From a virus (taxonomy: Duplodnaviria > Heunggongvirae > Uroviricota > Caudoviricetes): 5,481 bases of DNA. Within the stretch, counting starts at the first letter, position 1, and the number at the start of each line of letters is the position of its first letter. The notes beneath the pieces were generated by a model that saw only the letters and a list, made by a program, of their open reading frames with translations, had not been told where the DNA came from and made no database searches. The stretch is from positions 1 to 5,481 of the IMG/VR virus record IMGVR_UViG_2728369593_000014; one strand, given 5' to 3'. The translations under genes and the position numbers were made by a program. Of this stretch, positions 1,459 through 2,111 are shown in pieces.

Positions 1459-1994
1459 TTATCTGTCGATACCCCAGCACGCCAGCGCGCTCTCCTGGTC
1501 ACGACGGGATACCTGACCGTAACAGTTGTTTGAACGAATACGGCAGTCTCTGCCACCGTCCTTAATCCACCAGCGAATCGCCTCACAGGCACCTTTTCGA
1601 TCGCCTGCATTAATTCGTTTATAAAACGTCGACGGGAAGCACTTACCGGGGCCAATGTTGTACGGACAGAATGACGCGATCCCCGCTTTCTGGGGTTCGG
1701 TCAGCGGCACTTTGATGTTTTTCTCCACCCATGCCAGCGCCTTGTCACGTTCGATGGCATTAACCCGGTCGCATTTTTCCTTTGACAGCTTCATGCCAGG
1801 AATAACAGGCTTACCATCCACCAGAATGGCACCACGGCAGATGGTCCAGATCCCCGCACCATCACGGTATGCCATGGTGTGGTTACCTTCCTTTTCATCC
1901 AGAAACTGGTCGAGGATTTCAGGCGCAGAAGCACCTGCACCAATCAGCGCCAGAACGGCAGCCGACAGGTCCGTTATTTTATTTTTTCGTTCAT
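1459..1994 (-). CDS. R: Phage lysozyme-type SAR endolysin (R), 5' end disrupted: the only upstream ATG (1994) is in the +1 frame and hits a stop after 6 codons
   Basis: ATG-initiated ORF 1459..1875 (MAYRDGAGIWTICRGA…CEAIRWWIKDGG…QESALACWGIDR) shows the T4/P21-lysozyme family pattern (E…D…T catalytic spacing, GxWTxCxG). The same frame continues upstream without a start as …NKITDLSAAVLALIGAGASAPEILDQFLDEKEGNHT (SAR-like hydrophobic Gly/Ala segment) back to a stop at 2011-2013. One extra A in the A6 run (plus 1982-1987) would yield MNEKNKITDLSAAVLALIGAGAS… as a single ORF. Confidence 0.85.
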
Positions 1995-2111
1995 GGGGAT
2001 TTATCGATTTCTAATCCCTTGATATGTTAGGTATATAATCCAACACTCATGGTCGCTCTCATAAACATATCCCTTGAGACGCAGCAGATTACAACAAATG
2101 AAGCCATATAA

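Follow-up and report, generated by a model that had tools for sequence, protein, structure and literature searches.

The window analysed in this work (the whole stretch of 5,481 nucleotides) is the entire 5,481-bp contig AKYH01000132.1 of the draft E. coli assembly GCA_001605745.1; the contig opens within an IS3-family element and breaks off within iraM. The 3' end of this element occupies positions 1 to 327 on the plus strand, matches rve_2 and rve_3 and is of the IS629/IS1203 type, the matching DNA being annotated as IS1203 family. Its terminal sequence, TGAACCGCCCCGGG, ends at 327, where it meets the lysis cassette of a lambdoid prophage (junction 327|328), made up, in order, of pinholin S, R, two small ORFs and Rz/Rz1. 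The pinholin gene (2682 to 2888, minus strand) is intact and encodes a phage 21 S-type class II holin of 68 aa (PF04971, 'Bacteriophage P21 holin S', 1.3e-32), and the genes for the i-spanin Rz (504 to 977; PF03245, 1.3e-48) and, inside it, the o-spanin Rz1 (566 to 751; PF06085, 1e-21) are likewise intact on the minus strand.

The R gene (1459 to 1994, minus strand) is recognisable as that of a phage-21-type SAR endolysin of the GH24/T4-lysozyme-like kind, with its reading frame disrupted. Both an intact homologue and the 138-aa remnant ORF of the window match the phage lysozyme family PF00959 (Pfam; 1.1e-23 and 2.7e-22, respectively; 84 bits), and the sequence matches in the PDB are 7M5I, 3HDE/3HDF, which we take to be the phage 21 endolysin R21, and 4ZPU (RrrD). 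The alignments with 3HDE and 4ZPU begin at residue 9 and thus span the N-terminal hydrophobic, Gly/Ala-rich segment. This putative SAR segment (1921 to 1971, minus strand) reads DLSAAVLALIGAGASAP in the frame of the window and GLSAAVLALIGAGASAP in intact copies, and aligns with AVAAAIGGGAIAIASVL of 3HDE; in GLSAAVLALIGAGASAP 11 of the 17 residues are Gly, Ala or Ser and the mean Kyte-Doolittle hydropathy is 1.56, in keeping with the N-terminal, weakly hydrophobic, Gly/Ala/Ser-rich segment by which SAR domains are recognised (PMC9239132). The catalytic motif of true-lysozyme endolysins, E-X8-D/C-X5-T (PMC9239132), is found as E-X8-D-X5-T at 1843 to 1890 on the minus strand (Glu35 at 1890-1888, Asp44 at 1863-1861 and Thr50 at 1845-1843). 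In the alignment with 3HDE, Glu35 falls on the E of ...DGLEG..., and E35, D44 and T50 are all present, together with the lysozyme domain, in the protein obtained once the frame is repaired as described below. The numbering E35-X8-D44-X5-T50 is the same as in R21. Upstream of R and on the same strand, the pinholin gene, annotated as class II holin in relatives, would supply the expected partner. Since the PF00959 match, the alignments with 3HDE and 4ZPU, the three catalytic residues, the P21 holin S and the Rz/Rz1 pair all point the same way, we regard the assignment to the phage-21-type SAR endolysins, as judged from sequence comparison, as secure. The identification of a SAR-type endolysin gene in an earlier note on this DNA is borne out by the lysozyme domain, by the N-terminal part of the two structural alignments and by the pinholin.

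R21 (3HDE/3HDF) and RrrD (4ZPU, from E. coli K-12 DLP12) share with the window the lysozyme domain and the pairing with a P21-type pinholin and Rz/Rz1, and the gene is that of an already well-understood lysis enzyme. It differs from R21 in belonging to a distinct allele family (phmmer E = 1e-17), with an N-terminus MNEKIKYGLSAAVL where R21 has MPPSLRKAVAAAIGG, and from both R21 and RrrD in that the gene of the window is out of frame past codon 6.

On the minus strand of the window the open lysozyme frame extends from just past the TAG at 2013-2011 down to its stop codon, 1459-1461, and encodes ...NKITDLSAAVLALIGAGASAPEIL... (in its fuller stretch ...KSINPHERKNKITDLSAAVLALIGAGASAPEILDQFLDEKEGNHTMAYRDGAGIWTICRG...). 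The codon table and the translation agree with the earlier note that this frame contains no ATG, GTG or TTG before ATG-1875, and that the ATG at 1994 lies in a different frame, where ATG AAC GAA AAA ATA AAA TAA specifies MNEKIK and a stop at 1976-1974. The SAR segment is encoded in the window, yet unjoined to any canonical start, and no continuous ORF runs from a start codon through this segment and the catalytic domain; judged by its reading frames, R as sequenced is a disrupted copy of a SAR endolysin family member and not a functional one. The first canonical in-frame start (1873 to 1875, minus strand) corresponds to Met40 of the repaired protein. Since Met40 lies 3' of the Glu35 codon, a product initiated at Met-1875 would miss this catalytic residue, a loss overlooked in the earlier note, and it would also miss the SAR export/tethering signal; such a product would be neither active nor exported. 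Truncated starts may in this way drop catalytic residues, and the Met-1875 ORF should not be annotated as a lysozyme because the catalytic Glu is missing.

When the R region was compared by megablast with 5,426 complete E. coli genomes, 3,531 records matched, with match lengths of up to 669 bases for the 671-base query. Two of the relatives, MFDS1001074, the closest among the complete genomes, and O103 RM8385, annotate R as a 177-aa lysozyme. Neighbouring genes and their order are alike in the window, in MFDS1001074 and in the nearest relative, the contig L096 (DADHLV010000008.1, GCA_017016345.1), which was found through the intact protein WP_001003106.1. Over 5.16 kb the window differs from MFDS1001074 by 27 substitutions and 4 indels, with 0 mismatches and 2 gaps in the 2,073 nt of positions 328-2400, whereas from L096 it differs over all 5,154 nt of positions 328-5481 by 0 mismatches and 2 gaps, located at 1970 and 1974. 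All differences between the window and MFDS1001074 are common to other genomes, except two insertions and the IS junction, these insertions being the only private changes of the window outside that junction. Relative to the carriers of WP_001003106.1, the window thus has two extra bases (1970 and 1974/5) and an IS629/IS1203-type element 3' of the cassette. In MFDS1001074 the cassette belongs to a prophage remnant in which the DUF1737, DUF6645 and DUF826 genes are partial and a truncated tail-tip gene comes immediately after the lysis genes; in L096 the genes next to it are those for DUF3950 and the Nu1 and GpA terminase, a content suggestive of a more complete prophage.

In the sequence as given the frame is genuinely broken, and the lesion had been misplaced in the earlier note. 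It consists of two surplus single bases lying 6-12 nt downstream of the A6 run, namely, on the plus strand, T1970 and one T of 1974-1975. In the direction of the gene (minus strand), the first is one of the two T (coding A) at 1974 to 1975, which turns the Tyr7 codon TAC into TAA, and the second is the T (coding A) at 1970, placed between GG and CC of Gly8-Leu9; both appear as alignment gaps against the same five intact loci (L001, L002, L003, L096 and L098). Through the two bases TAC-GGC-CTG (Tyr7-Gly8-Leu9) becomes TAA-CGG-ACC-TG, so that the coding strand reads ATA[A]CGG[A]CCTG in the window and ATACGGCCTG in the homologues, the alignment with intact genomes setting ATA--CGG-CCTGTCGG opposite ATAACGGACCTGTCGG of the window. 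On the plus strand, positions 1968-1980 have the lesion form GGTCCGTTATTTT (in a longer rendering ...GACAGGTCCGTTATTTTATTTTTTCG...), and the form without the extra bases is GGCCGTATTTT (...GACAGGCCGTATTTTATTTTTTCG...). Their net effect of +2 nt produces both the -1 frame offset described in the earlier note and the premature TAA at codon 7. What is left of the true start (1974 to 1994, minus strand) is MNEKIK followed by TAA, beginning at the same ATG that is the annotated start of intact homologues. Once T1970 and T1974 are deleted, the gene specifies 177 aa with exactly the sequence of WP_001003106.1, the protein annotated as lysozyme in L001 and seen on 120 contigs.

The A6 run itself (1982 to 1987, minus strand; T6 on the plus strand) has its wild-type length, the same A6 being present in the intact loci L001, L002 and L006-L009. 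Intact 177-aa lysozyme homologues share the leader ATGAACGAAAAAATAAAATA with A6 and the one-frame N-terminus MNEKIKYGLSAAVL..., and their genes are read in a single frame as MNEKIKYGLSAAVLALIGAGAS.... Among the complete E. coli records with the allele of the window, a census with synthetic queries counted A6 in about 622, A5 in 1 and A7 in 0, and no intact homologue with A7 and TAACGGACC was found. Likewise, in 80 IMG/VR loci of relatives an ATG occurs at the same position, followed, apart from minor variants, by ...TACGGCCTGTCGGCTGCC...; where this collection includes the window's own allele, the run is A6, and the gene is in a single frame in all loci but two, the contigs L021 and L051 having A5. 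Thus, the comparison with intact homologues that the earlier note had proposed contradicts its view of a 1-nt deficit at the A6 run, with gaps only at 1970 and 1974, and equally its expectation that A7 is the intact state, the ancestral form having A6 and lacking one base each at 1970 and 1974/5, which gives MNEKIKYGL. Adding one A to the run does restore the frame, as had been said, and gives MNEKNKITDLSAAVL..., but this is arithmetic only, since the true repair leads to the intact MNEKIKYGL and not to the MNEKNKITDL of an A7 gene.

In other strains the A-run is an occasional site of indels; in the window it is intact. The single complete-genome record with A5 is E. coli O145 RM12275-C1, whose variant is annotated by PGAP from an ATA 10 nt 5' of the native ATG (INPHERKIKYGL..., WP_032164270.1); this protein of the A5 frameshift allele occurs on 6 contigs of O145 strains, a complete genome among them. 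The O145 allele and the window have in common the gene, the leader, the net displacement in frame of the gene body relative to its ATG and the same upstream ATA in frame. They differ in that the O145 lesion truly lies in the A-run (A6 to A5), whereas in the window the run is untouched and the lesion is downstream of it. The O145 lesion occupies the very site named in the earlier note, which, however, had posited a deficit from A7.

The wild-type status of the run bears directly on the proposal that the two frames are joined by programmed slippage, which the earlier note had listed with a sequencing or assembly indel and a genuine inactivating mutation. Such recoding, by a ribosome or an RNA polymerase slipping by -1 on A6 or on A-AAA-UAA, would provide a regulated, low level of endolysin; the shift needed is indeed -1, the leader is A-rich, and GAA-AAA-AUA-AAA-UAA contains Lys AAA codons after A, beside a rare AUA and a stop. 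Low-level P-site slippage in contexts of this sort ('shifty stops') is known. On the other hand, the zero frame (GAA-AAA-ATA-AAA-TAA) lacks an X-XXY-YYZ heptamer, and A6 falls below the run of about 8-9 A or T required for appreciable transcriptional slippage. Folding of the 96-nt leader is not notable either (z = -1.67, with 13 of 200 shuffles folding as well), and the sequence of the small hairpin predicted 3' of the site is also present in single-frame homologues. Programmed -1 frameshifting as in dnaX (A-AAA-AAG) or in orfAB of IS3-family elements (A-AAA-AAG) resembles the window in having an A-rich tract near the -1 join, but the window is without an in-frame heptamer, its small predicted hairpin lies in a fold that does not stand out from shuffled sequence, and its arrangement is not conserved in homologues. 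Programmed frameshifts are defined by a conserved arrangement, whereas the two-frame arrangement occurs here on one draft contig only. What decides the matter is that the same A-run is carried by the approximately 622 complete-genome records and by the intact IMG/VR copies, all of them single-frame. We therefore regard programmed or otherwise used recoding as having a negligible chance of being correct, and of the three explanations offered earlier only an indel error and an inactivating mutation are serious, slippage being unsupported by hundreds of homologues which carry the A-run and need no shift. A further hairpin, GGGAUU-N11-AAUCCC, is predicted just 5' of the ATG, in a fold that is not significant.

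A second route to a full-length product would be a non-canonical start at the in-frame near-cognate ATA (2002 to 2004, minus strand), which would give INPHERKNKITDLSAAVL... over 181 codons, that is, a SAR endolysin beginning (M)NPHERKNKITDLSAAVL.... Such an ORF retains the positive charge at the N-terminus, all of the hydrophobic segment and the catalytic motif, and RefSeq annotates the A5 variant in the same manner (WP_032164270.1). Near-cognate AUA and CUG starts in E. coli work at about 0.02-3% of AUG (bioRxiv 10.1101/063800), so that a few per cent at best would amount to leakage and not to design. Moreover, by eye there is no obvious Shine-Dalgarno match just upstream of ATA-2004, the strong native ATG 10 nt further 3' would capture initiating ribosomes, and the PGAP call is an annotation convenience and no proof of use. 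Initiation at this codon consequently appears very improbable as the origin of the endolysin, if marginally better placed than recoding. Slightly less remote, and still highly improbable, is the combined case in which the extra bases are real and a trickle of full-length endolysin arises through -1 slippage of tRNA-Lys in the P site at A-AAA, beside the rare AUA codon or the UAA stop, or through the AUA-2004 start; the window would then hold a lysis gene attenuated by chance, within a decaying prophage, and any residual full-length expression would be accidental.

The lesion was seen only once in the collections searched. The 138-aa remnant ORF occurs on the contig of the window only, by exact look-up in an index of 153 billion gene positions and by cluster look-up. 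Exact-pattern scans found a 22-nt lesion pattern in none of the viral, species-representative genome and metagenome collections, and a 33-nt pattern in no genome contig other than the window's own. Nor do the 5,426 complete E. coli genomes contain the lesion, the best full-length megablast match among them reaching 97.1% of 70 nt (about 68/70). The IS junction behaves in the same way, being spanned in none of the complete genomes, and the 51-aa ORF truncated by the IS is a singleton. Because this junction is unique too and no clonal relative has been sampled, private status cannot separate error from mutation; with the strain lineage itself unsampled, it is weak evidence on the question. A second assembly of the source strain was not found, nor was any paper in the literature for GCA_001605745.1 (AKYH00000000, AKYH01).

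We consider it likely, with a probability of roughly 0.6, that the two extra bases are a consensus or base-calling error in the draft assembly, the comparison with L096 pointing in this direction. The intact R is translated in a single frame from ATG-1994 with nothing programmed, and the extra bases at codons 7-9 stop the frame at Tyr7 and shift the remainder to -1 with no involvement of A6. Both changes are same-base insertions, 3 nt apart and immediately 3' of an A-rich tract. Insertions of one and the same base behind a homopolymer-rich tract resemble the carry-forward errors of flow sequencing, and insertions in a cluster typify local base-calling or consensus error more than mutation at near-zero divergence. 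An error is favoured because the 5,154 nt shared with L096 hold 0 substitutions, yet two clustered insertions of the same base.

The competing possibility that the bases are real, although less probable, deserves serious weight: R would then be a pseudogene and the lesion a very recent null allele, generated by one complex event or by two +1 insertions. Prophage lysis genes decay, as the remnant context of the cassette in MFDS1001074 illustrates, the loss of R could be neutral or even favoured in a decaying prophage, and the cassette of the window adjoins an IS629/IS1203-type element. Furthermore, the A5 allele of the O145 contigs provides another frameshift in the same leader, and the rest of the contig, devoid of private indels, does not look visibly error-ridden. 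Against a mutation stand its single occurrence and the rarity of a clustered double insertion at a divergence as low as that from L096, and no local template was found from which a templated complex mutation could have been copied. An artefact thus appears the more likely of the two. Were the bases real, translation from the native ATG would terminate after a 6-codon peptide, and the Met-1875 product would be devoid of the SAR domain and of Glu35. An IS element comes next after the lysis genes, so that the earlier note's concern over induced lysis is less weighty than it was taken to be.

Other sources of the two bases were considered and set aside. A templated mutation of the quasi-palindrome or template-switch type was rejected, as the novel 8-11-mers are absent elsewhere in the window and only chance 7-mers occur; judged by eye, one pair is gained and one lost through the insertions in a local ACGGC/GCCGT inverted repeat. 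A chimeric consensus of paralogous R copies was rejected too: the site reads TACGGCCTG in nearly all alleles, with L018 as the sole bearer of TACGACCTG, and the chimera is insufficient because mixing TACGGCCTG and TACGACCTG could account for no more than one insertion of the two; the flanks in the window are identical to the TACGGCCTG allele. The contig L067, which at 5,479 bp is two shorter than the window, was discarded as a sister contig since its R allele is another one (MNTKIKYGL), the similar length being coincidental.

Whether an assembly error or the routine pseudogenisation of a prophage lysis gene, the lesion carries little biological weight. It does illustrate that a frame break found beside a homopolymer should not be assigned to the run without comparison, the true lesion being here a few bases off. 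Rare start codons may in turn hide frameshifts, and the choice of an ATA start by RefSeq can mask those in the leader of this R gene, as it does in the O145 A5 allele.

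Comparison with complete genomes shows the contig to be a mosaic, with its breakpoint region at window 2401-2613. Its left-hand portion, 328-2400, agrees base for base with the complete-genome E. coli relative MFDS1001074 save for the two extra bases in R, the SAR endolysin gene; the right-hand portion, 2401-5481, is almost the same as in Z1323HEC0355 (2 mismatches). Both mosaic parts are matched across their full length (328-5481) by the draft contig L096, from E. coli assembly GCA_017016345.1. Further to the left, the 3' end of an IS629/IS1203-type element of the IS3 family occupies window 1-327 and adjoins the lysis cassette at the junction 327|328, of which no second instance was found in any collection searched; at the same point the DNA of L096, an otherwise identical relative, runs on into DUF3950 and terminase genes. 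Downstream of Rz, the IS element also truncates an ORF of 74 aa, reducing it to 51 aa (minus strand, 325-480).

At the other end of the contig, upstream of the holin, the minus strand of window 3334-5059 carries a series of gene fragments; these include DUF1737 (72 aa), DUF6645 (217 aa), DUF1378, DUF826 and a second DUF6645 piece. PGAP marks these pieces as partial in related genomes. In L091 and similar relatives, the DUF1737 and DUF6645 domains lie within one 616-aa DUF1737-SASA-DUF6645 esterase gene of the nanS-p type. The whole stretch looks like a rearranged remnant.

Within the cassette itself, the pinholin gene S and R are separated by about 690 nt, whereas in phage 21 they are adjacent. 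The gap comes from the presence of a conserved 90-aa ORF (2154-2426) on the plus strand, opposite to the lysis genes, which has no Pfam match and is a 'hypothetical protein' in the annotations of all relatives. Two small minus-strand ORFs lie between R and Rz (977-1335), being called in relatives at 48-60 aa and 43 aa; both are hydrophobic, without a Pfam match, and kept in the relatives examined. Terminator-like hairpins with T-rich tails were located on the minus strand directly 3' of R (1336-1368), ahead of these small ORFs and Rz, and directly 5' of the pinholin start (2943-2969); window 900-3400 holds six terminator-like sites against 2.3 expected from shuffles.

A separate R frameshift allele, whose leader run is A5 and not A6, occurs in O145 strains (6 contigs), as in E. 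coli O145 RM12275-C1 (L086:1525-2067) and likewise in the IMG/VR contigs L021 and L051. RefSeq annotates this allele as an intact 180-aa lysozyme, WP_032164270.1, with ATA as start codon, an annotation that probably masks a pseudogene. Yet another variant is seen in L018 (IMG/VR UViG 2563366822_000003), where R reads TAC-GAC-CTG (Tyr-Asp-Leu) at codon 8 as against the usual TAC-GGC-CTG; the change gives the SAR segment a charged residue at its edge and coincides exactly with the position of the window's second insertion.
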